A stretch of DNA of 64,000 bases from Alphaproteobacteria bacterium. GTDB lineage: Bacteria > Pseudomonadota > Alphaproteobacteria > MPNO01 > UBA830. The notes under the pieces are model-generated. The model was not told the origin of the DNA. It was given only the letters and a program-made list of their open reading frames with translations, and searched no databases. The translations under genes and the position numbers were made by a program. Shown here one piece after another: positions 907 through 35,123 of this stretch; position 1 is the stretch's first letter; each line of letters begins with the position of its first letter. The DNA is taken from contig OZ244055.1 of the NCBI GenBank assembly GCA_965214975.1, positions 1,430,994 to 1,494,993 of the forward strand. Reading direction: 5' to 3'.

Positions 907-1293
907 ATGACGGGAGGGGCGAAATTGGCTGAACTCTACGTGGGCCGGGCCGAGGAGTTCGGCGACCGCGACCGGAAGATCATCGCGCAGGGGGAACTCG
1001 AGATCGGCGTGTTCCATGTCGACGGGGAGTTCTACGCCTACGAGAACAACTGCGCCCACCAGGGCGGACCCGCATGCCAGGGCAAGATCATCAACCGCGT
1101 CGAGGAAATCATCGACGAGACGGAAAAGACCGCGCACGGCCTCAGGTTCTCGGAAACCGACGTGCACATCGTCTGCCCGTGGCACGGCTTCGAGTACAAC
1201 GTCAGGACCGGCCGCCATCCCGGCAGCGGGAACGTGCGGCTCCGGCCGTTCGAGGTCTCCGTCAAGGACGGAGAGGTGTATGTCGCCATCTGA
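907..1293 (+). CDS. Rieske [2Fe-2S] domain protein, NirD-like small Rieske ferredoxin (128 aa)
   Basis: CAHQGGP ... CPWHGFEYNVRTG: both Rieske CXH and CXXH boxes in a ~125 aa protein. ATG at 907 is in frame with the ORF ending at 1293. Confidence 0.75.
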   Translation: MTGGAKLAELYVGRAEEFGDRDRKIIAQGELEIGVFHVDGEFYAYENNCAHQGGPACQGKIINRVEEIIDETEKTAHGLRFSETDVHIVCPWHGFEYNVRTGRHPGSGNVRLRPFEVSVKDGEVYVAI

Positions 1294-1615
1294 GGCGGAT
1301 CTTGCGGCGCTCGACACCGCGGCGTCGACGGCGCTGGAAATCGCCGAACGGGCCCTTGACGCCGGCGAGACGGAGACGATCCCCGACGAGACCGTCCAGC
1401 GCCTGCTGACCGCCGGCACCAGACTGTTCGCCAACAAGGTCGAGATGGAGGAGCGGTTCTTCTCGCCCTACACGGGGGCGGAGGACGTCACGGCGACGGA
1501 CGTGGTGATGACCTGTTCGGACATGCTGCGCGCCGTCAACCTGTCGACCTTCGATCTGGCCATGTGGTTCGGGCGGCCCCGCCCCGAAGACGACGGACAG
1601 CGCGGGCCGGGCTGA
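1280..1615 (+). CDS. Hypothetical protein (111 aa), translationally coupled to the Rieske gene
   Basis: ATG at 1280 overlaps the Rieske stop (1291-1293). Acidic small protein with no recognisable motif. Confidence 0.4.
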   Translation: MSPSEADLAALDTAASTALEIAERALDAGETETIPDETVQRLLTAGTRLFANKVEMEERFFSPYTGAEDVTATDVVMTCSDMLRAVNLSTFDLAMWFGRPRPEDDGQRGPG

Positions 1616-1665: not shown

Positions 1666-2892
1666 ATGGACACGAGCGCCGAAGCGGTTCCCGTCCGGGA
1701 AAACCCCGTGAAGGAAATCACCACCTACACCGATTCCCGGGAGATCCTCGCGAAAGCGCGCCGGCAGGCGGAGGAGCGGAATTTCGACGACGTGTTCATC
1801 GTCGACATCGATTCGCATCACACCGAGACCGAATCCTGGCGCGACATCATCACCTACATCGACGACCCGGTGGTGCGCCAGAACGCCAAGGAGATGGTGT
1901 TCCACCGCTCGGGCACGCCGCCCTACGGTCTCAACGGCGATCTCGCCATGCGCTACCAGGACGTCGGCGGGCGGATCCCGCACCAGGCGGCGCGCAGCGA
2001 GGAGGTCGGCGAACGCGAGCTCGAGCAGGCCGGGCACCGGGATCTGGTTCTCGCCCGGCGCGCCTACGAGGCGATGGGGATCGACTACCAGATCGTGTTC
2101 CCGACGCCGATGCTCTTTCTCGGCATGCATCCGCAGTTCGACATGGAGGCGACGCTCGGCAATGCCTACAACCGGTGGCAGGTCGACAACATCCTGAGCA
2201 AGGACAAGCGCCTCAAGACGATGATGTTCCTGCCGTTCAACGATCCCGAATCGGCGCTCGAGACCATCGAGGAGTTCGGGGACGCGCCCGGATGCGTCGG
2301 CTTCATGGTCACCTCGGTGCGCTACAAGCCGGTCCACCACAACCACTACATGAAGGTCTACCGCGCCCTCGAGGAGCGGGGCCTGCCGATCGGCTTCCAT
2401 GCCGGGTACTACTGGCAGGATCCCTTCATGATGCAGATCAACCGGTTCGGCTCGATGCACGCCCTTTCCTTCGTCTGGTGCAACGTCGTCCACATGACGA
2501 ACTGGGTGATGAACGGGTTGCCGGAGCGCTTTCCCGGCCTCGACGCCGTCTGGATCGAATCGGGCCTGGCCTGGGTGCCGTGGCTGATGCAGCGCCTCGA
2601 CCACACCTACCTGATGCGGTCCTCGGAAGCGCCGCTGCTCAGGAAACTGCCGAGCGAGTACATGAAGGAGATGTACTACACGTGCCAGCCCATGGAGACC
2701 GACCACATGAAGGCCCTCGAGGTCACCTTCGAGATGATCAGCGCCGAGACCCAGCTGCTCTACGCCTCCGACTGGCCCCACTACGACTTCGACACGCCGA
2801 GCGTCATCTGGGATCTGCCGTTCCTCGACGAGCGGGCCAAGCGCAACATCCTCGGCCTCAACGCCAAACGCATCTTCGATTTCGACCGCTGA
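1666..2892 (+). CDS. Amidohydrolase_2 family metal-dependent hydrolase (ACMSD / LigW-like TIM barrel), 408 aa
   Basis: Shine-Dalgarno GGAGAAGG lies 6 nt before ATG 1666. Conserved DSHHT ... HAGY ... YASDWPH segments are typical of amidohydrolase-2 decarboxylases/hydrolases. Confidence 0.8.
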   Translation: MDTSAEAVPVRENPVKEITTYTDSREILAKARRQAEERNFDDVFIVDIDSHHTETESWRDIITYIDDPVVRQNAKEMVFHRSGTPPYGLNGDLAMRYQDVGGRIPHQAARSEEVGERELEQAGHRDLVLARRAYEAMGIDYQIVFPTPMLFLGMHPQFDMEATLGNAYNRWQVDNILSKDKRLKTMMFLPFNDPESALETIEEFGDAPGCVGFMVTSVRYKPVHHNHYMKVYRALEERGLPIGFHAGYYWQDPFMMQINRFGSMHALSFVWCNVVHMTNWVMNGLPERFPGLDAVWIESGLAWVPWLMQRLDHTYLMRSSEAPLLRKLPSEYMKEMYYTCQPMETDHMKALEVTFEMISAETQLLYASDWPHYDFDTPSVIWDLPFLDERAKRNILGLNAKRIFDFDR

Positions 2893-2961: not shown

Positions 2962-4359
2962 ATGAACACCAACGCCACCCCCGAACCCCGGCACGGACGC
3001 GGTCGCCGCGGCGCCCGCGTCCTGCTCGCCGCCGCGGGCGCGACGCTCGTGGCGTCGTCCGCGCAGGCGGCCGTCGAAGCCGAGACGCAGTACGTCCTCA
3101 ACACCTTCGCCTTCCTCATCTGGGGCGCTCTCGTGATGTGGATGTGCGCGGGTTTCACGATGCTCGAAGCGGGCACGGTCAGGACCAAGAACGCCTCGGT
3201 GATCTGCCTCAAGAACATCGGGCTCTACTCCATCGCCGGCGTCACCTTCTACCTCGTCGGCTACAACCTCATGTACACCGACGTGACCGGCTATTTCGGG
3301 TCGCTGACCTTCCTCTACGACACCACGCCGGAAGAGATCGCGCTGGTGGGAGGCAACGACACGGTTGCCGCATCGGTGATCTCCAACAAGCACGCCATCA
3401 TGTCGGACTGGTTCTTCCAGATGGTGTTCGTCGCCACGACCGCCTCCATCGTCTCCGGCGCCCTCGCCGAGCGCGTCAGGCTGTGGTCGTTTTTCCTGTT
3501 CATCGCGGTTCTGACGACCTTCATCTACCCGATCGTGGGTTCCTGGACCTGGGGCGGCGGATGGCTCTCCGAGATGGGTTTCCAGGATTTCGCCGGCTCG
3601 ACGGTGGTCCATTCCACCGGCGGCTGGGCAGCGCTCGCCGGCATTCTCGTCGTCGGTGCCAGAACCGGAAAGTTCCGCATCGACGGAAGCGTCAAGTCGA
3701 CGCCCCCCTCCAACGTTCCCGCCGTCACGCTCGGCGTGTTCATTCTGTGGATGGGCTGGCTCGGGTTTAACGGCGGCTCCCAGCTCGCGCTGGGAGGGGC
3801 GACGGACGCCATCGCGCTCAGCAACATCCTCGCCAACACCAACCTTGCCGCCGCCGCCGGCGTCCTCGCCGCGGTCACCATCTCGCGGCCGGTGATGGGC
3901 CGGGTCGACCTGCTGGCCACGCTCAACGGGGCGCTCGGCGGGCTTGTCGCCATCACCGCGGGCCCGGACATCAGCGACCACTACTGGGCGCTGGTCATCG
4001 GCGGGGTCGGCGGCGCCATCGTGGTCGTCGGCATAAAGCTCCTCGAGGTCGTCAGGCTCGACGACGTCGTCGGCGCCGTCCCGGCGCATCTGTTCGCCGG
4101 CGTCTGGGGAACGCTTGCGGTGTGCATCGCGGCGGGGGGAGACCTCATGGCGCAGCTGACCGGCGTCGTTGCCGTCGGCGCATTCGCTTTCGTCGTTTCC
4201 TACGCCGTTTGGTGGGCCATCGACAAGACGCTCGGAGCCCGGGTGACGCTCAAGGTGGAGGAACTCGGCCAGGACGTGGCCGAGCTCGGGATCGAGGCCT
4301 ATCCCGAATTCGTGGTCATGCCCGACGCCGACGAGATCAAGGACTTCCGCGCCGGCTGA
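2962..4359 (+). CDS. amtB: Ammonium transporter, Amt family (465 aa), with N-terminal signal peptide
   Basis: Signal peptide MNTNATPE...AQAAVEAE and multiple transmembrane segments. Amt signature GFNGGS plus conserved FAG...GAL motifs. SD GGAAGGA precedes the ATG. Confidence 0.9.
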   Translation: MNTNATPEPRHGRGRRGARVLLAAAGATLVASSAQAAVEAETQYVLNTFAFLIWGALVMWMCAGFTMLEAGTVRTKNASVICLKNIGLYSIAGVTFYLVGYNLMYTDVTGYFGSLTFLYDTTPEEIALVGGNDTVAASVISNKHAIMSDWFFQMVFVATTASIVSGALAERVRLWSFFLFIAVLTTFIYPIVGSWTWGGGWLSEMGFQDFAGSTVVHSTGGWAALAGILVVGARTGKFRIDGSVKSTPPSNVPAVTLGVFILWMGWLGFNGGSQLALGGATDAIALSNILANTNLAAAAGVLAAVTISRPVMGRVDLLATLNGALGGLVAITAGPDISDHYWALVIGGVGGAIVVVGIKLLEVVRLDDVVGAVPAHLFAGVWGTLAVCIAAGGDLMAQLTGVVAVGAFAFVVSYAVWWAIDKTLGARVTLKVEELGQDVAELGIEAYPEFVVMPDADEIKDFRAG

Positions 4360-4383: not shown

Positions 4384-5268
4384 TCACCGCGGCCGATCCG
4401 GCGGAGCGGCGTCTCCGTCGAGCACGGAAACCTCCATCGCGCCGACGATCTCCAGCTCGCAGCGGAGCCGGTCGCCCGGCCGAAGGGGCCCGACGCCGCC
4501 CGGCACCCCCGTCGTGACGACATCGCCGGGGTAGAGCGTGCAGAACCTCGATGCACCGGCGATCAGTTCGCGGCAGCCGGAAGCCGGCATGGCGGCACCC
4601 GCCTCCCGGCGCGGCTCGCCGTTGACCAGGATCCTGAAACCCAGGCCGTCGGGATCCGCGATCTCGTCGGCCGTCGTCATCCACGGCCCGATGACCGCGT
4701 AGCCGTCCAGGGACTTGCGCAGGCTGCGGTCCTCGACGCCGCGCAGCGCGACGTCGAGACCGATGGCGTAGCCGGCCACGTGACCGAGGGCGTCTTCCGG
4801 AGCGACGTTCTTTCCGGCGCGACCGACGACGATCGCGAGCCCGACCCCGTGATCGTTGGGGCGGTCCGCGTGCCCGGGGGCAATCCCCTCCGCCGCCCCC
4901 GCCAGGGCCGAGGCCGCTCTCAGGAACAGGCCGCAGGCGGCGGCCGTCCGCCCCGGCTCGCCGGAGGCGGTTTCCGGACTCTCACGCGCTTCCCCGGCGC
5001 GGTCCGCGGGGTTCGCCCGCGTGCCGAGGATCTTGGTCGGATTCGCGACCGGGCTTCGCAAGGCCACGTTGGCGACGCCCTGCACGTATCCGGCTTTCTC
5101 GTGCACCGGGATCTCCCGGAGCACGGCGTCAAGACCGGCGATCAGCGGATCGCCCGGCGGAAAGGGCCAGCGCCGCTCGGGCAACACGTCGAGCGCGGCC
5201 GTGACATCGATCAGCTGGTCGCCCTTGACCAGGCCGAGCTTGTTCCTGTTGTACCTGCAAAGCCTCAA
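4384..5268 (-). CDS. Fumarylacetoacetate hydrolase (FAH) family protein; likely TTG start at 5268 (alternative ATG at 5301)
   Basis: C-terminal 290 aa align with the paralog at 6745..7599 (MKLCRF.. vs LRLCRY..), including GYAIGLD, RSLRK, LYPGD, TGTP/VPGGVGP motifs. ATG at 5301 confirmed by codon counting. Confidence 0.75.
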   Translation of the reverse strand: MRLCRYNRNKLGLVKGDQLIDVTAALDVLPERRWPFPPGDPLIAGLDAVLREIPVHEKAGYVQGVANVALRSPVANPTKILGTRANPADRAGEARESPETASGEPGRTAAACGLFLRAASALAGAAEGIAPGHADRPNDHGVGLAIVVGRAGKNVAPEDALGHVAGYAIGLDVALRGVEDRSLRKSLDGYAVIGPWMTTADEIADPDGLGFRILVNGEPRREAGAAMPASGCRELIAGASRFCTLYPGDVVTTGVPGGVGPLRPGDRLRCELEIVGAMEVSVLDGDAAPPDRPR

Positions 5269-6341
5269 GGGCCGAATTCCTCGCGGGCGCCGTCGGCCCA
5301 TTCGAGCCCGTGGCCCGGCCTGTCGGAAGGCCGGATGCGGGCCCCGGCGTCCATTTCCGCGGGCGCCGCGAACAGCGGCTCGAGAAGAGGAAAGTCCTCG
5401 AGCCACCGGACCGCCGGAGCCGCGGCCGCGAGGTGGACGAACAGCGCCGGCAGGAAATGCGGCGAGACGACAAGGCCGTGGTGCTCGGCGAGCTGGGCGA
5501 CCCGCAGGCATTCGGTGATGCCCCCCATCATCGCGAGGTCCGGCTGGACCACCGACAGGGTCCGCGCCCGCATCAGCGGACCGATCTCCTCGACCCCCTG
5601 ATGGTGCTCGCCGGCGGCCAGCGCCACCGGGCTCCGGCGCGCGAGCATCTCGAGGCCGTTCGCGTCGCGGGCGGGAAGAGGCTCCTCGAACCACAGTGCG
5701 CCGACCTCCCCGAGCGCGGCGGCCAGCCGCTCCGCGCTCACGAGATCGCACTTCTCGTTGGCGTCGGCCATGATTGCGACATGCTCGGGCAACGTGTCCG
5801 CGACGGCGCGGATGCGCGGGAGGTCGCCGGCGTCGCCCGCGACGCGCAGCTTGACGGCACGGCACCCGCGTCTCGCGTAGTGAAGCGCCCGTTCGGCCGC
5901 GGCCTCGGGATCCTGGGCGGGGCCGAAACCGCCGGAACCGTAGACCGGAAGGCTGCGGTGCTCCCCGCCGAGCGCGACCGCCAGCGGCACGCCGAGGCGC
6001 TTCGCGTGAAGATCCCACATTGCCAGGTCGATGGCGGCGATCGCGAGATAGCCGACGCCCCGGCCGAGCCGGTTGAGCGAACCGGCAAGACGCCGCCACA
6101 GTGCCTGCGGCGGCAGGATCCCCTCGTTCGCGACGAACCGTTCGAGGAGATCCCGCGCCATCGCCGCGACGGCGTCTCCGCCGCCGCCCAGCACGTAGGA
6201 AAACCCCGTTCCCTCGACGCCTTCGGAATCCTCCAGGGTCGCGACGATCACGTCGACCGAGGAGATCCCCGAACCTCCCGTCGGCCCCGAAAGCGGAAAG
6301 ACCCACAGTTCGGCTCCGGCGCGCGCGATCCTGCCGTTCAC
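5265..6341 (-). CDS. Mandelate racemase / muconate lactonizing enzyme family (enolase superfamily) protein, 358 aa
   Basis: KLRVAGD, ADANE and FEEP metal-ligand segments are present. GTG start at 6341 overlaps the upstream gene's stop (GTGA); the gene's own stop overlaps the downstream FAH start. Confidence 0.75.
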   Translation of the reverse strand: MNGRIARAGAELWVFPLSGPTGGSGISSVDVIVATLEDSEGVEGTGFSYVLGGGGDAVAAMARDLLERFVANEGILPPQALWRRLAGSLNRLGRGVGYLAIAAIDLAMWDLHAKRLGVPLAVALGGEHRSLPVYGSGGFGPAQDPEAAAERALHYARRGCRAVKLRVAGDAGDLPRIRAVADTLPEHVAIMADANEKCDLVSAERLAAALGEVGALWFEEPLPARDANGLEMLARRSPVALAAGEHHQGVEEIGPLMRARTLSVVQPDLAMMGGITECLRVAQLAEHHGLVVSPHFLPALFVHLAAAAPAVRWLEDFPLLEPLFAAPAEMDAGARIRPSDRPGHGLEWADGAREEFGP

Positions 6342-6745
6342 GGCCGGTCTTCGACGACCAGCGTCACCGTGTCGCCGTCCTCGATGCCGAGCGCGTCGCG
6401 CAAGCCGACTCCGGCGATCACCTCCACCTGCGCGGGCGGGTAGTTCTCGACGAGAGGCAGCACGATCGCGCCCTCGATCCGGCCGTCGACGATCACGGGC
6501 CAGCACTTGGCGTCGCAATCGTTCGGCCCGGTTCCGGGATTGTCGATCGCGACGGCGCCTTCGCGCTTGAGGCGAACCCATGCGGGCGCCGAATCCGGAT
6601 CGTCGACGATCACGTTGGCGGTGCCCGGATAGGGATCGATCCCGAGCTTGTCGACGAACTGGACCCGCGCCCAGTCGAGTCCGGTGAAGGTCTTGCCCCT
6701 GCCGATCCCGCTCGCGAGGCGGCCGACGAGTCGCGTCGAGGCCAT
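6338..6745 (-). CDS. DUF120 / archaeal CTP-dependent riboflavin kinase (RibK)-like cradle-loop-barrel domain protein, 135 aa
   Basis: SGIGRGKTF...PYPGTANV and EGAIVLP...IEDGDTVTL correspond to the GEG-YF, PY-GTLN and DGAIVVP...DGD motifs recalled from M. jannaschii RibK (recalled from memory, not checked). ATG 6745 overlaps the upstream stop (TGATG). Placed inside an FAH/MR operon. Confidence 0.55.
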   Translation of the reverse strand: MASTRLVGRLASGIGRGKTFTGLDWARVQFVDKLGIDPYPGTANVIVDDPDSAPAWVRLKREGAVAIDNPGTGPNDCDAKCWPVIVDGRIEGAIVLPLVENYPPAQVEVIAGVGLRDALGIEDGDTVTLVVEDRP

Positions 6746-7599
6746 CAGGCGGCCAGAACGGAAACGTCCATGCGGCCGATGCCCTCGCAGTGGCAACGCA
6801 TCACGTCCCCGGGAACGACCGGCCCGACGCCTTCGGGCGTGCCGGTCATGATGACGTCGCCCGGATGGAGCGTGTAGAAGCTCGACCCGTAGGCAACGAG
6901 TTTCCTGCAATCGAAGATCAGCTTGTCCGTGTTCGAGTGCTGCCGTTCCTCCCCGCCCACGTGAAGCGAGAAATCCAGGTGGTCGGGATCGGCGATCTCG
7001 TCGGCCGTGACCAGCCACGGCCCCAGAACGGAATAGCTGTCGATGGCCTTGCGCAGGCTCCGCTCCTCGGTTCCGCGCACCGTCATGTCGAGACCGATCG
7101 CGTAGCCCGCCACGTGGTCCAGGGCGTCCTCGTACGCCACGTTCTTGGCGGTTTTCCCGATCACCATGGCAAGCTCGACCTCGTGATCGTTGCGGCGGTC
7201 CGTGAAGTGCAGGCGCACGCCCTCCCCAGGCCCGACGAGCACCGGATTCTTGAGAAACAGCCCGTATTCGTCGATCGTCTTGATCTCCCGCCCGAAGCTC
7301 ACCCCCTCGTCCGCGATCGATTCCTCCTTGTGCGCGTGGTAGTTGACAGGCGCTCCGATCACCTTCGTGGGATTGGCGACCGGACTCTTGAGGGCGACAT
7401 CCCCGACGCCGCGACGATCGCCGGAGGAGGCGAGTTCCTGCGCTCTGGCGCGCACGGCATCGAGGTTCGAGACGAGCGCGTCGCCCCTGGGCCAGGGCCA
7501 GCGGGCGGGAGGAATCTCCTCCAGCGCCCCGGTCACGTCCACGATCTCGTCGCCCTCCACGAGGCCGAGCCGGTCGGCATCGAAACGGCAGAGTTTCAT
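6745..7599 (-). CDS. Fumarylacetoacetate hydrolase (FAH) family protein, 284 aa
   Basis: SD GGAGGAG sits before ATG 7599. Carries the same FAH-family motif set as the 4384..5268 paralog (GYAIGLD, RSLRK, LHPGD, TGTPEGVGPV). Confidence 0.8.
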   Translation of the reverse strand: MKLCRFDADRLGLVEGDEIVDVTGALEEIPPARWPWPRGDALVSNLDAVRARAQELASSGDRRGVGDVALKSPVANPTKVIGAPVNYHAHKEESIADEGVSFGREIKTIDEYGLFLKNPVLVGPGEGVRLHFTDRRNDHEVELAMVIGKTAKNVAYEDALDHVAGYAIGLDMTVRGTEERSLRKAIDSYSVLGPWLVTADEIADPDHLDFSLHVGGEERQHSNTDKLIFDCRKLVAYGSSFYTLHPGDVIMTGTPEGVGPVVPGDVMRCHCEGIGRMDVSVLAA

Positions 7600-7926
7600 C
7601 CTCTTCTCCTCCCGGAAACGGCGTCCGATCTCTCGTGGACGCGGAAAAAACGAACTGTTGCACCGACAAGGCGCCGCCGGAACCCTTCGCGGACGGTCCC
7701 CGGCACGGCACCGCGCCATTGTAGCGGGGACGTGTGCGGACTCAAGAAGTCCCGACCCCGGGAAGCGTCTGTGCGGGGTCTTCCGGCCCCGTCAGGCGCC
7801 GCCGATCCTTCGCCGCCGGTGTCGACCGCACGGCGGCGGGGCGCCCTCCACGGTGGAACCTTGCCCCACGCCGGGGGTTCGGCGGCTTGACCGTCGTCCG
7901 GCGGAACGTAGAATGGTTTTCGGGTC

Positions 7927-8000
7927 GCGGGTGTAGCTCAATGGCAGAGCAGGAGCTTCCCAAGCTCAAGATGAGGGTTCGATTCCCTTCACCCGCTCCA
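7927..8000 (+). tRNA. tRNA-Gly (anticodon CCC), 74 nt with encoded CCA
   Basis: Cloverleaf read by hand. Acceptor GCGGGTG/CACCCGC with discriminator T and CCA. D-arm GCTC-AATGGCA-GAGC. Anticodon loop TTCCCAA. T-arm GAGGG-TTCGATT-CCCTT. One G-A mismatch at the top of the anticodon stem. Confidence 0.85.
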
Positions 8001-8275
8001 GCATGCTCACCTCCGCGCCGGACGCCGTTCGCGATCCCGGGACCGTCGCGCGGACGGCGGTGTTTCCTCCCCGCGCCAACCGCAAGACCGGCTTTGGCCA
8101 CGCCATGCGTTGACGCGCGGCAGGGCAGACCGGCTGCATGGACTCCTGAGCCAGCCGGCGGTCCGGCGAGCGCACCCGGCAACGGCGGGTCGCTGAGAAG
8201 CCCGGCGAGCCCACCGCGGACAAGGGCCGCCAGCCGCTTCTCGCTCCTGTCGGCGGCCTTCGGTGGGGTTCGCGG

Positions 8276-8593
8276 TCAAACCGGGACTTCGATGCACACC
8301 CCCGCCTCCGCCTGATCGAAGGTAGCGCGAATACGCTCCACATGTTGTCGAATACGCGGCCAAGATGCGGCGAGCAGTACAATGACCGCGAATTGTCTGC
8401 CGTCCAGATTCTGCTGGTAGCGAAGGTTCCGGTCTGTGGTGACCAAGAGTTCATAACCTTCCGCGTCGGCGCGATCGAGCAGCTCGCCGTTGCGTAGTTC
8501 CGACCATCCCCGTTCGAAGGCGGTGTCCACCACATGACCAGGCAAATGCCGGCGCAGAGGGGCGGGCACGCCTTGATCGAACAGAATCTTCAA
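8276..8593 (-). CDS. DUF5615-type (PIN-like / Mut7-C-like) putative toxin, ~105 aa, TTG start overlapping the upstream stop
   Basis: Small protein directly downstream of, and overlapping (TTGA), a DUF433 gene. This pairing is typical of DUF433/DUF5615 toxin-antitoxin-like modules. GC is lower than the core. Confidence 0.5.
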   Translation of the reverse strand: MKILFDQGVPAPLRRHLPGHVVDTAFERGWSELRNGELLDRADAEGYELLVTTDRNLRYQQNLDGRQFAVIVLLAASWPRIRQHVERIRATFDQAEAGVCIEVPV

Positions 8594-8814
8594 GAAGCAT
8601 GCTCCATCAGCCCTCGAGTCTCGTGGTCGAAAACGCTTTCGATATGCCAGCGTTCGACGCCAGGAAACCATTCCAGAAACTGTTCGATCGTGGCCCCGTC
8701 CCTAAGGTTCTCGAACAGCGCGGCGACGGGCACGCGAGTACCGCGAAAGACCCAGACGCCGCTGACCTTGCCGGGATCGCTTTCCACGGCAGGGCAGGTG
8801 GTCCATGAAATCAT
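8590..8814 (-). CDS. DUF433 domain protein (74 aa), putative antitoxin-like partner
   Basis: 74-aa ORF with an ATG start. Sits immediately upstream of the small DUF5615-like ORF in a TA-like arrangement. Confidence 0.5.
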   Translation of the reverse strand: MISWTTCPAVESDPGKVSGVWVFRGTRVPVAALFENLRDGATIEQFLEWFPGVERWHIESVFDHETRGLMEHAS

Positions 8815-8835
8815 GAGTTCATCTCCCTCCGGAAA

Positions 8836-9330
8836 TCAGACCTTCATTGACCAGCCCGGTCGGCGCTCGACTGGTCGGGCTCCGTTGGCAATGCGGAGGC
8901 CGCCTCCCGCAAGTCGGATTCGCCGGTTACCGCCTCGGCGATCAGGTGCATGATCCCGAGGGCGGAGGCTGTGTAGCGCCTTCCGAAACCTGCGTACAAT
9001 TAGTCCCTTCGCCCACAACGCACATCGGCCAACCTCTTCAACTTCGCGTACAAGCAAATCTCCTCGCCGAACCGTATAGCGTTTACGTTCGGTCGGAAGA
9101 ACATCCATCTTGGGAAAGTCGTCGACGTTGATCCGATCCCACTGGATCTCAATATCCCTAAGGCAAGGAAGCAAGTGCGCGCCTGCGATCCGATCGATGC
9201 CGAGCATCTTGCCAAGACCCTGAGAGCACCCGCAATGAAGGAGGGTGACCTTCCAATGCGACGGTACCGGTCCTAGCCACATGACTCCAGAATCCTTCAT
9301 CGACGGGTGGGGCTTGAGAGCATCGATCAA
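8836..9330 (-). pseudogene. Possible type I restriction HsdS target-recognition-domain fragment (164-aa ORF, TTG start overlapping the DUF1524 stop)
   Basis: GVMWLGPVPSHWKVTLL and RKRYTVRRGDLLVREVEEVG resemble the LPEGWEW..LG opening and GDIL..G block of HsdS TRDs, but the ORF is too short for a full HsdS. Lowest-GC stretch of the window (~50%). Confidence 0.3.
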
Positions 9331-9911
9331 GACTCAGCTTCCTGCGCCAATCGCTCAGGGCTCCAAATCTGCCCGGCGAGCTGCTGGTACAGGTTCTGGC
9401 GTGCGTTCAGGTCATCCTTATGGAACTGGGAATGTGCCTTGAAGGGCAGCGCACTCCTACGCACGAACTGATCGAAGCCGGGATCACGCTTATAGGCGTC
9501 CTCATGGAGGCTCTGAGCCAGCAGGTTCTGTTTGAGATAATGCTTGCGTTTGTCAACGTAGGGGATGGCGCCATAACTGGCATTGAAGCTCTTGGGCACA
9601 AGCAGCAGACCCCCGATTCGGTTGCGGTATTCGGAAAAGTCCGCGGAATGCGAAAAATCTTCGGTGTGACGCTCAGGGTGATCGGCCCAAATGTGTTCGA
9701 TCTCGAATCTCTTCTTTCCGTGCCGCTGTACGTACTCGTGATAACGCGAGGCACGTCCTGAACGCGTCTCAACATAGTCCGTCATCCGAGCAAGCAGGCG
9801 GTGGACTTGCCGTCTATTGGTGCCGTGTAGCTGGAATCGATCGTTTGTGATGAAGGTTTCGCTTTCTGCCGCAAGGCGCTCTCCGAGCATCTCAACAAGG
9901 GGCCGGCGCAT
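9327..9911 (-). CDS. DUF1524 (GmrD-like His-Me finger nuclease) protein; ATG 9911 (alternative GTG 9977)
   Basis: KKRFEIEHIWADHPERH ... NRIGGLLLVPKSFNASYG is the DUF1524 signature. The N-terminus overlaps the 3' end of the DUF262 gene in another frame. Confidence 0.6.
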   Translation of the reverse strand: MRRPLVEMLGERLAAESETFITNDRFQLHGTNRRQVHRLLARMTDYVETRSGRASRYHEYVQRHGKKRFEIEHIWADHPERHTEDFSHSADFSEYRNRIGGLLLVPKSFNASYGAIPYVDKRKHYLKQNLLAQSLHEDAYKRDPGFDQFVRRSALPFKAHSQFHKDDLNARQNLYQQLAGQIWSPERLAQEAES

Positions 9912-11178
9912 CTTTGCCCCGAATATCGCGCATGACCAGAAACATGGCGTACTGCATGGTCGAGTAGCCGATAGCACGGAAATTCCAAATTCGTCGCGTA
10001 ATCAAGATGTCGAGATACGCTGCTACAATACGCAGCTTTCGCAGAAGATCCCGCTCACCGTCGTCGCGTCGCAAGGGTGCCAGGAGAACAGGGTATTGCA
10101 ATGTAAAGTTATTCTGGGCGCAATAATGGATCGCCTCTAAACCATCCGTTAGAGTCTCTGCTGCTTGACGTAGACGTGAATACCAATGGCCATAGAAGCA
10201 AAAGTCCTCTTCAATGAAGCGGGCGAAGTCGTTCCCCGATGACAGTCCAAGTGGTTCTTGGTTGTCGCGGACCCAGCGATGAAATTCGGTGCCTATGAGG
10301 TCGAAATCTCGCGGTTTGCCACCTCGCTTTCGCTCGCGGATGCTTTTCGCGTGCTGGCTGCGTAGCCACCCCTTGATGGCGTCAGCGATGGCGTCAGTTT
10401 CCTCCTCCTTCCCAAGATCTTGCAGACTGCTCACGTGCTTGCGCCAAAGTCGATTTGCCTTATTGCGACGCTCGCCATCGTCAATATGCGCCAAGAGATA
10501 TCCCTTGAGCATGTCGGCGGGCGTAAGCGAGAGTCCTCGGTCGTTCATAGTCTCAAAGATGGTGTAGGCGTCCGCGTCCGAATAGGCGGTGATTTCGACC
10601 AGGTAGACATTCTCGATTAGCCAATCCGAGAAATAGGGAAGAGCATCATTGACAAGATCTTCGGGAAAGTGCTCCTCAACATCCTCGAACCGCCGGAAAA
10701 TGTTGGTGACCGACTCGGACTGTCCTGCTGCTTCTATATCTGTCATATCCGCTTTGAACAGCGCGTCCATGCACACTGACCGCTCGTCGACATCAATGTT
10801 GAAAGAGCGCTGACCGAATCTTTGCGAGTAAATCAGGTCAGAAAGTTGGTGCCTCTCTTGATCATCATCGATTTGTCGATATATATAAATAAGAAGGAGT
10901 GTGAGGGTTGTTAGTCTCTGCTGGCCATCAATTATGAATTTTTGCCCCTCTTTATCGCTGATGATGATGGACCCCAAGAAGTAATGGCCGTAATCCTGAA
11001 CGCCCTTGCGGGAATCGCCAGGTTTGTAGCTATCCCGAAATTTTTCCGTGAGATCACCTATCAGCTCTGCAACTTGCTTGGTCTGCCAGCGGTATTCGCG
11101 TTGATAGTAGTCGATGGCGTATTTGGCACCGCCGAGCAGTGAACGCAGGTTCTTTGTATCGCCACGAATCTCTTTCAC
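9892..11178 (-). CDS. DUF262 (GmrS-like, ParB-nuclease-fold) protein, ~428 aa, GTG start with AGGGGAAG SD
   Basis: Hallmark IIDGQQRLTTL motif. N-terminal YAIDYYQREYRWQ (DUF262 opening). GTG 11178 is preceded at 8 nt by AGGGGAAG. Low-GC codon usage. Confidence 0.7.
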   Translation of the reverse strand: MKEIRGDTKNLRSLLGGAKYAIDYYQREYRWQTKQVAELIGDLTEKFRDSYKPGDSRKGVQDYGHYFLGSIIISDKEGQKFIIDGQQRLTTLTLLLIYIYRQIDDDQERHQLSDLIYSQRFGQRSFNIDVDERSVCMDALFKADMTDIEAAGQSESVTNIFRRFEDVEEHFPEDLVNDALPYFSDWLIENVYLVEITAYSDADAYTIFETMNDRGLSLTPADMLKGYLLAHIDDGERRNKANRLWRKHVSSLQDLGKEEETDAIADAIKGWLRSQHAKSIRERKRGGKPRDFDLIGTEFHRWVRDNQEPLGLSSGNDFARFIEEDFCFYGHWYSRLRQAAETLTDGLEAIHYCAQNNFTLQYPVLLAPLRRDDGERDLLRKLRIVAAYLDILITRRIWNFRAIGYSTMQYAMFLVMRDIRGKDAPAPC

Positions 11179-11428
11179 GGTCTGCTTCCCCTGTGATGTC
11201 GCCGAGCAACCCCTCGGTCTTCTTCTCAAGCGCCAGGATGTCGGCGCGAATCTCCTCCAGCGTCCGTATGGGCTGGAGCTCGTTGAAGTAGCGGTTGAGG
11301 AAGCCTCTCCCGTCGGTAAGCCGCGCGCAGAGCGTGGCCGGAACAGTCGATCAGCCCGTCCGTGGTCAAGACGCGCGTGCAGACCGTGTTCTCGATCCGC
11401 AACCTGCCTTCCGTCGCGCCGTCTCCGG

Positions 11429-11962
11429 TCACGGCTTCCTCGCGACCACGTGAAAGATGTGCCAGTGCTTCGGCTCGGCCCGCAGCGTCAGGCTGTCCTC
11501 CTCCTCTTCGTCGAAGAGCTCGACGTCCAGCCCCTCGAGCAGACGCTCGGCTTCGGACCGCGAGAGACTGGTGATGCCGCGCCTCTCGGCCCAGCTGTCC
11601 CGCTCCCCGTAGAGCTGCCCCGAGAAACGGCCGCCCGGGCGCAGCGCCGCGACGACCTTCCGCCAGACCCCGCCGAAGGCCGACGGCGGACAGAGCGGCA
11701 GCGAAAAGCTCGCGTTCACCAGATCGCAGGGCGGCAACGTGATGTCCTCGTGGCGGCTGACCTGCGTCGTGAGCGCCACTCCGTCGGGCAGATCGTCCCG
11801 GATCCGCAGCGCTTCTATGGCCTCCTCGAACGCGTCGGCCGCAAGGGTCGGCCAGCCCCTGCGCAGGATCTCGATCGTGTCGCGCCCCGCCCCGCAACCG
11901 AGATCGACCGCGAGGGCGGGGTCGGGACGCCCTTCCGTGTCGAAGGCGTCGAGAGCGCGCAT
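11429..11962 (-). CDS. Class I SAM-dependent methyltransferase (177 aa)
   Basis: Motif I VDLGCGAGRDT near the N-terminus, acidic motif II (DAFEEA) and a motif-IV-like LRPGG. Confidence 0.6.
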   Translation of the reverse strand: MRALDAFDTEGRPDPALAVDLGCGAGRDTIEILRRGWPTLAADAFEEAIEALRIRDDLPDGVALTTQVSRHEDITLPPCDLVNASFSLPLCPPSAFGGVWRKVVAALRPGGRFSGQLYGERDSWAERRGITSLSRSEAERLLEGLDVELFDEEEEDSLTLRAEPKHWHIFHVVARKP

Positions 11963-12026
11963 CAGCGTCGCACGAGGCGGGAGGCCCCGGGTTTTCGCGA
12001 AATACGCGACCCAGGCCTTTCCGCGC

Positions 12027-12839
12027 TCAGAGGAAATTCTGCCCCCCGTCCACGATCATGCCCTGTCCGGTGATGTAGGCGGCCTCGTCGGAGCACAGGA
12101 ACAGCATCGCCTTGGCGAGATCGTGAATCGTCCCCTGCCGAGGCATGCACTGCGTCTCGGTCATCTTCGCGAACATCTCGCGCGGGACCGACGGCCGCTC
12201 GATCTCGGTCTGCATGACGCCCGGCCAGAACGTGTTCACCGTGATGCCGTGGGGTCCGAGCTCGCGCGCCATGGAGCGCGTCATGCCGATCATCGCCGAC
12301 TTGGTGGTGATGTAGTGCAGATAGTTCACGCGGCCCAGCATCGTCGTCCCCGAGGAGATGTTGACGATCCGGCCCCACTTCGCCTCGATCATGTGGCGGA
12401 CCACGGCCCGCGAGCACCAGAAGGCGCCGTTGACGTTGACGTCGACGGCCCGCAGCCACTCGTCTCCGGGGAGCTCCCAGAACGGGGCCATCGTGATCCT
12501 GGAAAAGACCGCCGCGTTGTTGATCAGGACGTCGATCCGGCCGAACTCGGACATGGTCGCCGCCGCCATCCCCTTCGCCGATGACTCGACGGCGACGTCA
12601 ACCTCCAGGGGAAGAGCCCGTCCGCCCTTGGCCTCGATCTCCTTCGCGACCCGGCCCGCGTTCCCGCCGTCGATGTCCGCGACGACCGGTATCGCCCCCT
12701 GCGCCGCGAAATAATGCGCGTAGCCTCTGCCGATGCCCTGTCCGCCGCCCGTGACGATCACGACGCGATCCCGCAGGCTCTCGTAGACCACGTTCTTGTC
12801 GACCTCGATTTCCGAGTAGTCTATGTTGCCGATGTCCAT
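12027..12839 (-). CDS. Short-chain dehydrogenase/reductase (SDR) family oxidoreductase
   Basis: TGGGQGIG cofactor motif, NNAA, and catalytic S...YxxxK (YITTKSAMIGMT). Start taken at MDIG (ATG 12839); ATG 12866 is an alternative. Confidence 0.75.
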   Translation of the reverse strand: MDIGNIDYSEIEVDKNVVYESLRDRVVIVTGGGQGIGRGYAHYFAAQGAIPVVADIDGGNAGRVAKEIEAKGGRALPLEVDVAVESSAKGMAAATMSEFGRIDVLINNAAVFSRITMAPFWELPGDEWLRAVDVNVNGAFWCSRAVVRHMIEAKWGRIVNISSGTTMLGRVNYLHYITTKSAMIGMTRSMARELGPHGITVNTFWPGVMQTEIERPSVPREMFAKMTETQCMPRQGTIHDLAKAMLFLCSDEAAYITGQGMIVDGGQNFL

Positions 12840-13580
12840 CAACGGATCTCTCCCCGGTTGCACCACGATTCGTCTTCCAGTCTAGACGTCCGCAGGGCGA
12901 TCCGAAAGCGGGAACCGGGCGCGCCGGCGGTCGACGGCGCCGGGAAGGCTCTCGAGGCCGTCGTCGGCGAGCCCCTCGCGCGACGCGACGCCACCGTCTC
13001 CGCGAGGCGGTCCCCGCGAGTCCCGAAGGTGCCGGAAGCCGTCGCGACGGGGTGCGCGACCCCGGGCGGCGGAAGAGCGCCCGCGTGCTGCCGATGCCGG
13101 GGATCGGGAAGAAACGCCAACCCCGCCGTTTCCTCTCCGGCGACATGACGGCGCGACGCGCCGGACGGCACGTGCCGGCCCGCATCCCGCGTTCCCGGAG
13201 CGGCTCGGGCGCATCCCTGCCGGCGCCTCTCGGCAGCGTCGACAGCAACCCCTCGCAACGCGCCCCGTCCGCAGGCTCGGCGCCAGCCCGAGCCCCGGAT
13301 TCTCCGGGGTTCCGCGTCCGCGAAGCGGCCGGACCGGGAACCCTCGGCGGCGGTCACCGGGAACGGCGGGCCGGCAGGCTTCCGCATCGAAACGCCGACT
13401 CCCGTCGGGGAGCCGCAGGCAGCACGCGAATCGCGGAAGGCGCTTCCGCGAAAGCGTCCTGCAGGGAACGCGGGCGTTCCGCCAGCCGATGGCGGACGGG
13501 CCCGGACGGGGGAGCGCGGCCGCCCGTCCGCGGAGCGCCGGAACTCCCTCGGCGGCTCCGGAAGCCGTCCCGGCGCCGCG

Positions 13581-14798
13581 TCAGACGGTTTCCTCGGAAC
13601 GAAGCCGGGCGAGTTCGCGTTCATCGAGGCCGAGCCATTCGCGCAGCACGCCGTCGGTGTCTTCCCCGAGCCTCGGCGGCGCCAGCCTGTAGTCCACCGG
13701 GGTCTCCGAGAACCGCATCGGGCTTCCGATCAGCGCGACCTCTCCCGCGAGTTCGTGGGGCATGCGGACGACCATTTCCCGCGCCTTGACGTGGGGGTTG
13801 TCGAACACCGCCCGGAGGTCGTTGATGGGGCCGCAGCCGATCTTGCGTTCCTCGAGTCCCTCGAGCCACTCCGCCGAGGGTCTGGACGCCAGGATCTCCC
13901 GCAGCACCGGCAGCAGCCTGTCGCGGTTGCGCACCCTCGCGTCGTTGGCGGCGTAGTCCGGATCGTCGGCAAGGTCCGGCCGCCCCGCAAGCTCGCAGAA
14001 CTTGCGGAACTGCCCGTCGTTTCCGATCGCCACGATGATGTGTCCGTCGGCCGTCGGGAAAGGCTGGTAGGGGACGATGTTGGGGTGCGCGTTGCCGAGC
14101 CGGCCGAGCGACCCGCCGTGCAGGTAGTTCATGCCCGCGTTGGCCAGCATGGCGACCGTGGTGTCCATCATGCCGATGTCGATGTGCTGCCCGTTGCCGT
14201 CGGTCGCAGCGTGGCGCAAGGCCGCGCAGACGGCGACGGCGGCGTACATGCCGGCCATCAGGTCGGCGATCGGCACCCCCACCTTCTGGGGTTCGCCGTC
14301 GGCCTCGCCGGTGATCGACATCAGGCCGCCCATCCCCTGCAGCAGAAAGTCGTAGCCCGGGCGCTTCGCGTAGGGCCCGGTCTGGCCGAAACCGGTCACG
14401 GAACAGTAGACGAGCCGCGGATTCAGGTCTTTCAGGTCGTCGTAGCCCAGGCCGTAGCGGGCGAGATCGCCGGTCTTGAAGTTCTCGACGAGACAGTCCG
14501 CCTCGGCGGCGAGCCGGCGCGCGAGTCCGGAGCCGCCGGGCCTGGAGATGTCCAGGGCGACGGACCTCTTGTTGCGGTTGGCCCCCATGAAATACGCGCT
14601 CTCGCCCGTCTCCCCGCCCTCGCCGTCACGGACGAACGGCGGCGCGAACTTCCGCGTGTCGTCGCCCGAGCCCGGACGCTCGATCTTGACGACATCCGCG
14701 CCCAGATCGCCGAGAATCTGCGTGCAGGCCGGCCCCGCAAGGACGCGGGTCAGGTCGAGAACCCTGACGCCCCGCAGCGGACCGGACGCCCCGGTCAC
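13581..14798 (-). CDS. CoA-transferase family III (CaiB/BaiF) protein, 405 aa, GTG start
   Basis: GPLRGVRVLDLTRVLAGP N-terminus and conserved GADVVKIE, NRNKRS, CSVTGFGQTGP blocks. GTG 14798 with GGAGGAG SD overlaps the upstream gene's stop. Confidence 0.8.
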   Translation of the reverse strand: MTGASGPLRGVRVLDLTRVLAGPACTQILGDLGADVVKIERPGSGDDTRKFAPPFVRDGEGGETGESAYFMGANRNKRSVALDISRPGGSGLARRLAAEADCLVENFKTGDLARYGLGYDDLKDLNPRLVYCSVTGFGQTGPYAKRPGYDFLLQGMGGLMSITGEADGEPQKVGVPIADLMAGMYAAVAVCAALRHAATDGNGQHIDIGMMDTTVAMLANAGMNYLHGGSLGRLGNAHPNIVPYQPFPTADGHIIVAIGNDGQFRKFCELAGRPDLADDPDYAANDARVRNRDRLLPVLREILASRPSAEWLEGLEERKIGCGPINDLRAVFDNPHVKAREMVVRMPHELAGEVALIGSPMRFSETPVDYRLAPPRLGEDTDGVLREWLGLDERELARLRSEETV

Positions 14799-16366
14799 GA
14801 CGCCTCTCCTCCTTCGGCGAGCGTCGCGTCGACGCCGAGTCCGGGAAAGTGCTCCGCCCTGAACGAGGACCAGGCGACCGGATCCTCGCTCGAACCGTCG
14901 TCGAGCTCGAGGTCGAACACCACCTCCCCCGGCCGCCCCGGCGTGACCTCCACCCACCGCGCCCGGCAATGGGATTCGAAGGGGGTCGTCGACGGCTCTC
15001 CGTCCGCGCTGCAGAGACCGCCGTAGGTGACGAAGGTGTTGCCCGTTCCGGGCAGCCTGAACGCTCCGCCCTGGAAGCACGCGAACTCCGCGTCGTCCGC
15101 GGAACGGGTTTCCCAGACCTGTCGAACCGTTCCCGCGTCCTCGTCCACGGCGAATTCCACGGCCCGGCTGTAGCTTTCGGGCCCGGACATCCTCTCGTCG
15201 AACGGACTGGCGCGATGGTTGCCGTTGTCGAAGCACAGGAAGGTGCCGCCGCCGGTGACGGAGCAGTCGTGCTGGTGGTACTGCCACTCCGTTCCGGACG
15301 CGGGCGCGAGCAGACGCCCCTTCCACGGATCCCGCCAGTTCGCATGCGTCCCCAGGATCCATTTCAGGCGGCCCGAGGAGCGGTCGACCTTGACCAGGCA
15401 GTCCTGGTGGCGAACCGACACCACCAGACTGTCGTCCCTGCCGTCATGCGCAAGGCCGTTGACGTGGGTCCAGTCGCAGGTGTCCGCGTACCCCCGCCGC
15501 ACCCAGTAGTCGCTCAGGCTGTCGTAGCCGACACGCAGCGGATCCAGGATGTCGAGAAGCGGATGGCGGTTCACCACGGCGCCGTCGCGGGCGAACTCGA
15601 CGATCACGTCGCCGACGACCCGGGAGGTGGCCGTTCCGGCTTCCGGGTCGACGTCCGATGCCGGAAAGCCGTCGATGTCGCGGATCTCCATGCCGCAGAC
15701 GACGAGATTGCCGGAAGGGAGTTCCACGACCCCGTGATGGAACATCTCGGTGTCCACCTCGACCGAGTCTTCCGGAAGCCCCCTGCCCTTCCAGCGTCCG
15801 GCCGCATGCCAGTCGCCGACGACGGTTCCCAGAAGATCGATCTCCCGCAGCCGCCCGTCGGTCATGAACAGAACGTTGCCGTTGGCGAGCCGGCGGATGT
15901 CGCCGACCGCTTCGTCCACCCTGCAGGACCAGACGATCTCGCCGAAACGGTCGACGGCAACCATCAGCCCGAAACCCTCCCGATCCTCCGACCCCGGGGC
16001 ATGCCGGACGTTGAACATCATCGCGCCCGGCTCCCGTCTTTCCGGAACGCACGACCGGAGTCTGAACGGCGGAAAGTCGTCCGGCATCGGCGGGGTGGCG
16101 AAGGTCAGGGGGCGGCCGGCGATTCGCGTGCCGCCATCGGCGGTCTCCGCCCGCACCGCGATCTCGTGGACCGCCCCGAAGCGAAGACCGAGCAGCGGAA
16201 TCCGGTGAGCGGCGGCCGGCCCGGCCTCGAAACGCCTCGCGTGCCGGCCGTCCGCGACCTCGACGATCGCCCGCGACGGCATGTCGGTGGAGAATTCCAC
16301 GACGGCCGCCAGCGGCACGTTCTCGTTGGGGCCGGGAACCACTGCCGGAGTCGTCTCGAACCTCAT
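14795..16366 (-). CDS. Arylsulfate sulfotransferase (ASST) family beta-propeller protein, ~523 aa
   Basis: Length plus repeated HHG/HD..W..G propeller segments (WQYHQHDCSV, THVNGLAHD, FHHGVVELPSGN) typical of ASST. ATG 16366 with GGGAGGGGAG SD; the stop overlaps the CoA-transferase start. Confidence 0.55.
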   Translation of the reverse strand: MRFETTPAVVPGPNENVPLAAVVEFSTDMPSRAIVEVADGRHARRFEAGPAAAHRIPLLGLRFGAVHEIAVRAETADGGTRIAGRPLTFATPPMPDDFPPFRLRSCVPERREPGAMMFNVRHAPGSEDREGFGLMVAVDRFGEIVWSCRVDEAVGDIRRLANGNVLFMTDGRLREIDLLGTVVGDWHAAGRWKGRGLPEDSVEVDTEMFHHGVVELPSGNLVVCGMEIRDIDGFPASDVDPEAGTATSRVVGDVIVEFARDGAVVNRHPLLDILDPLRVGYDSLSDYWVRRGYADTCDWTHVNGLAHDGRDDSLVVSVRHQDCLVKVDRSSGRLKWILGTHANWRDPWKGRLLAPASGTEWQYHQHDCSVTGGGTFLCFDNGNHRASPFDERMSGPESYSRAVEFAVDEDAGTVRQVWETRSADDAEFACFQGGAFRLPGTGNTFVTYGGLCSADGEPSTTPFESHCRARWVEVTPGRPGEVVFDLELDDGSSEDPVAWSSFRAEHFPGLGVDATLAEGGEAS

Positions 16367-34934: not shown

Positions 34935-35123
34935 CGCGGATCCTCCTCTGCGGGCTCTGCGGGGTTCCCGTGCCGGCTTCCCGCGCCATCCCGGCGGAAA
35001 GCGCCGCGGATCCCCTCTATAGCGGCGCGAGGACCGGTTATCAACTTGCGGCCGTCTCCGGGGCGGCTTGCCGGGAACGGCCGGAACGGCTATTGACCGG
35101 GGGGCTTCAAACCGGAGGATCGA

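Follow-up and report, generated by a model that had tools for sequence, protein, structure and literature searches.

The 64,000-nucleotide window analysed here, a stretch of ~70% G + C on contig OZ244055.1 (GCA_965214975.1) of an alphaproteobacterium, contains four successive genes on the minus strand at 7599..4384, delimited by open reading frame (ORF) listing and start-codon mapping. The second of these encodes a 135-aa protein that appears, as judged by its sequence, to be a RibK-fold kinase of bacterial type, in which the acceptor site is altered and the partners are new. The first gene, FAH1 (7599..6745, 284 aa, PF01557), starts with ATG and is preceded by GGGAGGAGAAGAGG (GGGAGGAG in the gene table). 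Its stop codon has one base in common with the ATG start of the DUF120 gene (6745..6338, 135 aa, PF01982) in the junction TGATG. The third gene (6341..5265, 358 aa, GTG start) encodes an enzyme of the mandelate racemase (MR) family (PF02746 and PF13378) and overlaps the DUF120 gene by four bases (GTGA). The fourth, FAH2 (5268..4384, 294 aa, PF01557), encodes a diverged FAH paralogue and overlaps the MR gene by four bases (TTGA); its TTG start is supported because the N-terminal LRLCRY aligns with MKLCRF of FAH1. Thus, the chain of overlapping start and stop codons described in an earlier note on this DNA was recovered, and the four genes form a translationally coupled operon, in which the RibK-like gene is preceded by FAH1 and followed by an MR gene of the KxR type discussed below and by a degenerate FAH2.

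The 135-aa protein matches PF01982 with 92.6 bits (cut-off 25) over profile positions 2-121 of 121, and contains the motifs G13-x-G15-x-G17-xx-F20, P38-Y-P-G-T-x-N44 and GAIVLP...DGD. In a phmmer search, it matched the riboflavin kinase RibK of the archaeal gene MJ0056 with E = 2e-9; RbkR of Thermoplasma was also matched. An AlphaFold2 model built from 70 homologues reached a mean predicted local distance difference test (pLDDT) score of 89.4. With this model, Foldseek retrieved RbkR (5TRD) with a template modelling (TM) score of 0.85 and a root-mean-square deviation of 2.2 Å, and MjRibK (2VBU/2VBV) with TM scores of 0.77-0.79; there was no other significant match, all others having E > 0.04. 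Thus, the modelled protein shows the cradle-loop-barrel RibK/DUF120 fold that the earlier note had proposed, and no unrelated fold emerged.

The ligand-binding sites of taRbkR and mjRibK, as defined in the literature (PMC5397151), were mapped onto the protein via an HMMER alignment. The nucleotide site is retained, i.e., G13, G15 and G17 of the Gly-rich loop, Y39-P-G-T42-A-N44 at the PGTxN motif, and L115-R116 of the LR loop. The Glu of the archaeal GEG motif is represented by Arg16, at a position that varies among bacterial members. The proposed catalytic base, Glu195 of taRbkR, corresponds to E108, which is invariant in all bacterial members examined, and besides this base three of six FMN-contact positions are retained, i.e., F20 (Tyr109/Phe), P97 (Pro185) and Y102 (Tyr190). 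Because the nucleotide site and the catalytic Glu are conserved, an active nucleotide-dependent kinase is the default, and the protein is most likely such an enzyme. Invariant in every bacterial member examined are G13, T21, W25, F30, P40, G41, T42, N44, C77, P97, Y102, E108 and L119; among these, T21, W25, P40 and C77 are exclusively bacterial invariants that are absent from the archaeal enzymes, and the window protein is accordingly referred to as the bacterial W25/C77 type. A metal site at H-D-C-D-x-x-C was considered and rejected: only Cys77 is invariant, and divergent MR-linked members have neither the Asp residues nor the second Cys.

In fold and length, the protein is similar to archaeal RibK (MJ0056, 2VBV) and to the kinase domain of RbkR from Thermoplasma acidophilum (5TRD), with which it also shares the Gly-rich phosphate loop, the (Y/F)xGTxN motif, the LR nucleobase loop, the catalytic Glu and the Pro and Tyr lid residues. 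However, it is only 24-27% identical to them by structural alignment, has Ala26 and Cys77 in place of Tyr115 and Phe165, and contains the added invariants T21, W25 and P40. Moreover, its gene belongs to an MR/FAH operon instead of being grouped with rib genes, and its host is a bacterium, whereas orthologues of RibK/RbkR were stated not to occur in Bacteria (PMC5397151).

A genome scan seeded on the DUF120 protein yielded 44 loci, all in metagenome-assembled genomes and mostly from Alphaproteobacteria. An MR gene lies directly downstream of the DUF120 gene in 33 of them, and in 19 of these 33 an FAH gene is also found upstream, completing the four-gene order; an FAH gene is present downstream in 34 loci, and one locus (L009) has FAH-DUF120 without MR. 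Precomputed gene calls on three contigs showed the same arrangement. Gene calling by GC frame mis-called antisense ORFs at 70% GC and was used for rough neighbour lists only, with precomputed calls being used elsewhere. A metagenome scan seeded on the MR protein yielded 80 further loci (L058-L137). Among those with a K-(L/I)-R-type MR, DUF120 lies immediately upstream in 36 (with a gap of -6 to +44 nt in 34), is missing in six, and cannot be scored in eight that end at a contig edge, which amounts to 36/42 where the contig extends far enough. In contrast, among the loci with a K-P-R- or K-V-R-type MR, DUF120 was found upstream in none, with 27 lacking it and three ending at a contig edge.

The pair survives on contigs of 39-46% GC (L079, L085, L088-L090), where the DUF120 proteins are 31-39% and the MR proteins 58-68% identical to those of the window. 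The neighbours on these low-GC contigs include a divergent tRNA gene, which lies just upstream of DUF120 in L079, L084 and L089, and genes for a D-2-hydroxyacid dehydrogenase, a family III CoA-transferase, an FAH protein and an acyl-CoA ligase. Farther out, there is a run of housekeeping genes (bactofilin, M23 peptidase, PALP enzyme, HAD, SLT, dapA and smpB), which also flanks the module in L045 and L047. The wider region is, therefore, an old alphaproteobacterial synteny, which makes the adjacency weaker as functional evidence. Nevertheless, among 45 loci (the window and the 44 from the genome scan), a given flanking gene is shared by no more than ~10, as against 26-34 for the core genes. The stop/start overlap is kept over the whole range, which points to selection for co-expression, and the gene order is not due to chance because it recurs in dozens of independent contigs. 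Thus, the co-conservation in other genomes on which the earlier note had made its proposal depend is evident in 33/44 and 36/42 loci, and the RibK-like-to-MR pair is ancient, widespread in (uncultured) Alphaproteobacteria, and specific to one MR subtype.

The MR-family enzyme matches PF02746 (N-terminal capping domain) with 37 bits and PF13378 (C-terminal barrel domain) with 156.5 bits. Its closest solved relatives, at 168-176 bits, are the L-talarate/galactarate dehydratases of Polaromonas (2OG9/3CB3) and Salmonella (2PP0). The Mg ligands D193/E219/E245 and the D268-H295 dyad, which are conserved among orthologues, align exactly with their counterparts in 2PP0 and 2OG9. The enzyme differs from these dehydratases in the KxK motif, which reads K164-L-R166 (at about 5846-5854 of the window), with Arg replacing the second Lys. 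Arg occupies this position in all 32 genome-locus orthologues that match in full length across the motif, as well as in each of the 80 metagenome relatives, a clade (L058-L137) with two flavours, K-(L/I)-R and K-P-R. In the Salmonella dehydratase, the second Lys of the motif is Lys197, which Yew et al. reportedly identified as a general base in 2007. Since it is replaced by Arg166, the MR enzyme is predicted to have one general base, not two. The NCBIfam equivalog TalGalacDh was missed (223.9 bits vs. a cut-off of 500), and we know of no characterised enolase-superfamily member with a KxR motif.

Bacterial DUF120 genes also occur without MR or FAH genes. Such a set was composed of nine genome loci (L036-L044), whose DUF120 proteins are 47-59% identical to that of the window, and of contigs found through a profile search with 1,453 homologue clusters. 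In L039 (8001-10441), a UbiX gene (NCBIfam 256.7 bits vs. a cut-off of 188) directly follows DUF120 and is itself followed by a UbiD-like gene. UbiX and UbiD are located 3 kb upstream of DUF120 in L038 (1765-6086), the order is UbiX, UbiD, carbonic anhydrase, DUF120 in L056 (312-4462), and UbiD lies within 4-8 kb of DUF120 in L041, L044 and L050. On plasmid pAZKH of Azoarcus sp. KH32C (L054, 6017-8976), an anaerobic phenol cluster ends with UbiD, UbiX, DUF120 and NUDIX; this DUF120 protein is 34% identical to that of the window and has the same Trp and Cys. It was the one bacterial match in a plasmid collection that otherwise contained haloarchaeal RibKs adjoining ribB. Altogether, UbiX and/or UbiD was present within ~8 kb in 7 of ~17 independent MR/FAH-free loci, where chance would give ~1% per locus by our own estimate, which assumes 1-3 such genes among ~4,000 genes. 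In L036, DUF120 directly adjoins nrdR-ribD-...-ribH-nusB. Group II intron RNA domains, unrelated to the subject of this analysis, were seen in L040 (13847-15713) and L044 (222-297).

An exhaustive PF01982 search among 1.84 billion representatives revealed 1,475 relatives (50%-identity clusters, archaea included) with E <= 1e-3, some of which are fusions. The DUF120 domain was found fused to a type-2, FMN-dependent isopentenyl diphosphate (IPP) isomerase (TIGR02151, 348 bits vs. a cut-off of 281), to a YhbP/PNPOx-like FMN-binding domain, to HAD phosphatases (in both orders), to an MFS transporter, and to a VOC/glyoxalase domain (representatives P0269, P0208, P0257, P0204 and P0212/P0220). Ten multi-domain proteins from the 150 best representatives were checked, and none of them is a fusion of DUF120 with MR; the two longest are fusions with MFS and with type-2 IPP isomerase. 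T21, W25, P40 and C77 are common to the window protein and all fused and UbiX-linked members. In a rough neighbour-joining tree, the MR-linked sequences form a basal grade and a crown clade that includes the window protein, with the UbiX-linked and other members in between. Nothing in this topology indicates two distinct functional subfamilies, and the intermediate position of the UbiX-linked members favours a common activity.

The reading favoured here, to which we give roughly even chances, is that the 135-aa protein belongs to a bacterial branch of the archaeal family of cytidine triphosphate-dependent riboflavin kinases and most likely acts as a flavin kinase that converts riboflavin, or a close flavin, into flavin mononucleotide (FMN). 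A flavin acceptor is preferred because it is the single hypothesis that covers every association outside the MR context: UbiX consumes FMN, type-2 IPP isomerases and PNPOx-like proteins bind it, the fusion of a HAD domain to the presumed flavokinase has a parallel in a plant enzyme, and one of the DUF120 genes adjoins a rib operon. The W25/C77-type protein would phosphorylate riboflavin (or a close flavin) to FMN, and the operon would couple the expression of a local source of FMN to that of a module for organic-acid catabolism, consisting of the MR dehydratase-type enzyme, the FAH C-C hydrolase and a neighbouring Rieske/ARO monooxygenase (see below). As to the plant parallel, AtFMN/FHy was reportedly described by Sandoval and Roje in 2005 as a bifunctional FMN hydrolase/riboflavin kinase. 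Its logic, a HAD phosphatase joined to a flavokinase domain, recurs in the bacterial DUF120-HAD fusions; however, the plant kinase domain has an unrelated, ATP-dependent fold of the PTAN type, and the window protein itself is unfused.

Several observations weigh against a flavin kinase. Tyr115 of taRbkR, which contacts FMN and is absolutely conserved across archaeal RibK/RbkR (PMC5397151), is replaced by Ala26, this position being Ala or Val in all bacterial members, and another FMN-contacting residue, Phe165 (Phe/Tyr in archaea), is replaced by Cys77, which is invariant among bacterial members. Furthermore, the cut-offs of both NCBIfam riboflavin-kinase equivalogs were missed (57.4 vs. 168 for ribK_Meth NF040694 and 81.6 vs. 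279 for PRK14165). Because of these missed cut-offs and changed flavin-contact residues, the protein, although it belongs to PF01982 by profile and fold, is not a demonstrable RibK orthologue. As to the surroundings, tblastn revealed no UbiX or UbiD in the 64-kb window or in any MR-linked locus, no flavoenzyme or rib gene was found in these sequences either, and no FMN riboswitch, nor any other riboswitch at the Rfam gathering score, was detected in the window or in 22 related loci. The earlier note had described the protein as having no flavin context. Locally, this holds true, as no flavin gene or FMN riboswitch lies nearby, but it does not apply to the family as a whole, in which fusions and neighbourhoods point to flavins. 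Not all of these links are specific, however; those with UbiX and type-2 IPP isomerase are not flavin-specific because both enzymes also handle dimethylallyl (di)phosphate. In addition, bacteria normally make their FMN by RibF. The dominant, translationally coupled partner is an MR-family enzyme without a known flavin requirement, and a flavin kinase thus leaves the oldest and commonest association of the protein, that with the coupled MR gene, unexplained.

The earlier note had suggested that the protein acts on a different small molecule or has a regulatory role. Either is possible, although the fusions and neighbourhoods of the family point to flavins. The alternative that fares best is that the RibK fold was re-targeted to the hydroxyl group of a hydroxy-acid in the MR/FAH pathway, which we consider conceivable, if rather unlikely. 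Candidate acceptors would be the 2-keto-3-deoxy acid made by the MR enzyme (compare DgoK or KdgK, which act after their dehydratases) or a small cleavage product, e.g., glycerate. A kinase of this kind would account for the position of DUF120 immediately upstream of the K(L/I)R-type MR in 33/44 genome and 36/42 metagenome loci, its absence from all 27 KPR/KVR-type MR loci, and the maintenance of the pair at 31-39% DUF120 identity and 39-46% GC. It would also agree with the remodelling of the acceptor pocket by Tyr-to-Ala and Phe-to-Cys substitutions, with the D-2-hydroxyacid dehydrogenase, CoA-transferase III and acyl-CoA ligase genes that adjoin the divergent loci, and with the chemical resemblance that the ribityl 5'-OH may have to the terminal CH2OH of a sugar acid. 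However, identical pocket invariants are found in at least 17 loci without MR or FAH and in fusions with FMN proteins, MR-free members interleave with MR-linked ones in the tree, and the module contains no conserved aldolase or other user of a phosphorylated intermediate. Also, the Tyr-to-Ala and Phe-to-Cys changes would be expected from the sequence to enlarge rather than shrink the pocket. In its most far-reaching form, which is likewise rather unlikely, this reading implies that the RibK fold was recruited in Alphaproteobacteria as a new metabolite kinase, which, as the partner of a KxR-type enolase-superfamily enzyme, would phosphorylate a hydroxy-acid intermediate, with the flavin-linked relatives representing a secondary use of the scaffold. 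Acid catabolism would thereby gain a kinase family without precedent in this type of metabolism.

The lack of flavin specificity in two of the links noted above leads to another option, i.e., that the bacterial subtype is a prenol or dimethylallyl kinase, which would supply UbiX-type chemistry with dimethylallyl phosphate or some other short prenyl phosphate. The strongest partners outside the MR context, UbiX as a neighbour and type-2 IPP isomerase as a fusion, bind dimethylallyl (di)phosphate as well as FMN, and some UbiX enzymes require the unusual monophosphate, dimethylallyl monophosphate (DMAP) (PMC6541611). A NUDIX or HAD phosphatase gene is often found beside the DUF120 gene, but such a kinase would be superfluous if the NUDIX or HAD enzyme acts on dimethylallyl diphosphate. 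Moreover, the PNPOx/YhbP-like fusion, the adjacency to a rib operon and the ribityl-covering residues P97 and Y102 fit a flavin instead, and the MR/FAH module has no isoprenoid link. This option is, therefore, improbable. Even less probable is a non-catalytic role, in which the protein, without transferring phosphate, would bind a nucleotide or small ligand and assist the MR enzyme as its regulatory or chaperone subunit. The tight translational coupling of the two genes could be understood in this way, as could the much faster evolution of DUF120 as compared with MR (31% vs. 59% identity when compared over the same loci), and archaeal RbkR has a kinase domain that doubles as a ligand sensor (PMC5397151). 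However, a pure binder need not keep Glu108, T42/N44 and the Gly-rich loop, which are invariant in all bacterial members; there was no DUF120-MR fusion among the 10 multi-domain proteins checked (of the 150 best), and many DUF120 members occur without any MR gene. A link with the catabolism of riboflavin or lumichrome was rejected: the reconstituted pathway comprises a P450, amidases, a ThDP decarboxylase, a xanthine oxidase, a Rieske dioxygenase, a pyrone hydrolase, a hydratase and an aldolase, and it contains only an unassigned FAH and no MR or DUF120 protein (PMC12746152).

Of the two FAH proteins that frame the operon, FAH1 (PF01557, 167.6 bits) has intact NY (N86-Y87), H139-E-V-E142 and D171 motifs. 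Its closest solved relative is maleylpyruvate hydrolase (6JVV, 208.8 bits, end-to-end alignment; also 6JVW), with which it shares the metal-binding motif, whereas the match to L-2,4-diketo-3-deoxyrhamnonate hydrolase (8GSR) is weaker (110 bits). A gentisate dioxygenase gene was not found in the 64-kb window, and a 335-aa cupin gene follows the operon in L045 and L046 only. In FAH2 (PF01557, 126.2 bits), D172 is kept, but the metal-binding ExE (H140-G-V-G143) and NY (N86-P87) motifs are lost. Its ORF is intact and has a normal G + C content at third codon positions (0.87). The downstream FAH copy has decayed likewise in four other lineages (L017, L023, L033 and L034). FAH2 is probably an inactive paralogue under relaxed selection, and the pattern suggests either the repeated decay of a redundant FAH paralogue or a pseudoenzyme.

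The operon is accompanied by a convergent trio of genes. The first of these (907..1293, plus strand) encodes a small Rieske [2Fe-2S] ferredoxin of 128 aa, the second (1280..1615, plus strand) a conserved 111-aa protein without a Pfam or NCBIfam match, and the third (1666..2892, plus strand) a 408-aa PF04909 protein of the amidohydrolase-related dinuclear oxygenase (ARO) type. The closest solved relatives of the latter are AROs, i.e., 8SM7 (133.9 bits) and SfbO (8SM6, 101.7 bits), followed by AibH2 (6M1W) and PtmU3 (6OMP). AROs work with Rieske partners (PMC10811679, PMC13154177), and a PF04909 gene together with a small Rieske gene in one transcription unit is the signature by which they were discovered (PMC10811679). 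As in the AibH1H2/AibG, SfbO and PtmU3 systems, the window combines a PF04909 gene with a small Rieske gene, here two genes upstream on the same strand. In contrast to these systems, the window trio includes the extra 111-aa protein between the two genes, and a reductase gene is not adjacent. The trio accompanies the operon in 26-28 of 45 loci and on many metagenome contigs; a Rieske homologue was found in 28 of the 45 loci and also among L060-L109, and the 111-aa protein is 65-91% identical across the module loci. The three genes seem to encode an orphan ARO monooxygenase system that has an additional small subunit not described before. The alternative that the PF04909 neighbour is an L-fuconolactonase-type enzyme was rejected, its closest solved relatives being dinuclear oxygenases and its gene being paired with that of a Rieske ferredoxin. 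In two metagenome loci (L127 and L128, 6001-8878), Rieske and ARO genes come after a KPR-type MR gene on the same strand and DUF120 is absent, which constitutes an independent link between MR and ARO.

The earlier note had pointed out that the combination of MR and FAH genes is seen in non-phosphorylative sugar-acid routes such as those of fuconate or xylonate. Clusters for such routes hold genes for a dehydratase, a 2-keto-3-deoxy-acid dehydrogenase and a diketo hydrolase (or a dehydratase of the KdaD type), mostly together with those for a sugar dehydrogenase, a lactonase and a transporter. A route of this kind could not be established here. FAH1 is nearest to maleylpyruvate hydrolase, all NCBIfam equivalog cut-offs were missed, FAH2 lacks the ExE ligands, the MR enzyme has KxR for KxK, and the conserved partner in the clade of the window is the Rieske/ARO trio. 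The components of a sugar-acid pathway present in the window are MR and FAH, and an SDR gene (12027..12866) lies 4.4 kb upstream, beyond an island described below; across the loci, the module has no conserved gene for a sugar dehydrogenase, a lactonase or a transporter. The fuconate/xylonate analogy holds at the family level only. The module looks like one for the catabolism of an organic acid by hydroxylation, MR-type dehydration or isomerisation, and C-C hydrolysis, and the substrate may be an acid sugar, a dicarboxylate or a ring-cleavage product.

A candidate sigma-70-like promoter, TTGAGT-16-TACAAT (7745..7718, minus strand), is situated ~120 nt upstream of FAH1. It was recognised by its match to the consensus alone, two such sites being found where 0.2 were expected in shuffles. 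The start of the operon is bounded by a divergent tRNA-Gly(CCC) gene (7927..8000, plus strand), a synteny landmark of the DUF120-MR region, and its end by a convergent ammonium-transporter gene (2962..4359, plus strand), which lies between the oxygenase trio and FAH2. In L047, L065 and L070, no ammonium-transporter gene is present in between and the trio and the FAH operon abut directly; in L045, they are separated by a cupin and a GNAT gene. Next to the tRNA-Gly gene, which is its attachment point, lies an island of low GC content (0.58-0.60; 8000-11229). It contains a GmrSD-type restriction gene that is split into overlapping ORFs for the N-terminal (9892-11229) and C-terminal (9327-9977) parts, possibly by a frameshift, as well as a gene for a DUF5615 protein (8276-8671) and an unassigned ORF of 164 aa, and lies between the operon and syntenic genes for a methyltransferase, an SDR and a CoA-transferase (11429-14800). 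Elsewhere in the window, tblastn searches with the neighbours of divergent DUF120-MR loci as queries located a third FAH paralogue (35106-35939, plus strand), a second family III CoA-transferase gene (53374-54543, minus strand) and a gene for an AMP-binding ligase (17575-18984, plus strand).

The PF01982 proteins studied so far are archaeal riboflavin kinases only, and in the literature found the bacterial branch is undescribed: no paper came up on bacterial DUF120 proteins, on their link with UbiX or on their association with MR. This branch has its own invariants, T21, W25, P40 and C77, and two recurring genomic associations. In the clade of the window, the conserved module also offers a handle on the natural substrate of an orphan Rieske/ARO monooxygenase, a class whose substrates are mostly unknown. 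If the W25/C77-type protein is a flavokinase, many bacteria would possess a second route to FMN, unrelated to RibF and tied to the chemistry of prenylated FMN and UbiD and to a catabolic operon. If it is not, it would represent a new kinase specificity, and this specificity and the function of an uncharacterised KxR-type enzyme of the enolase superfamily could be solved together.

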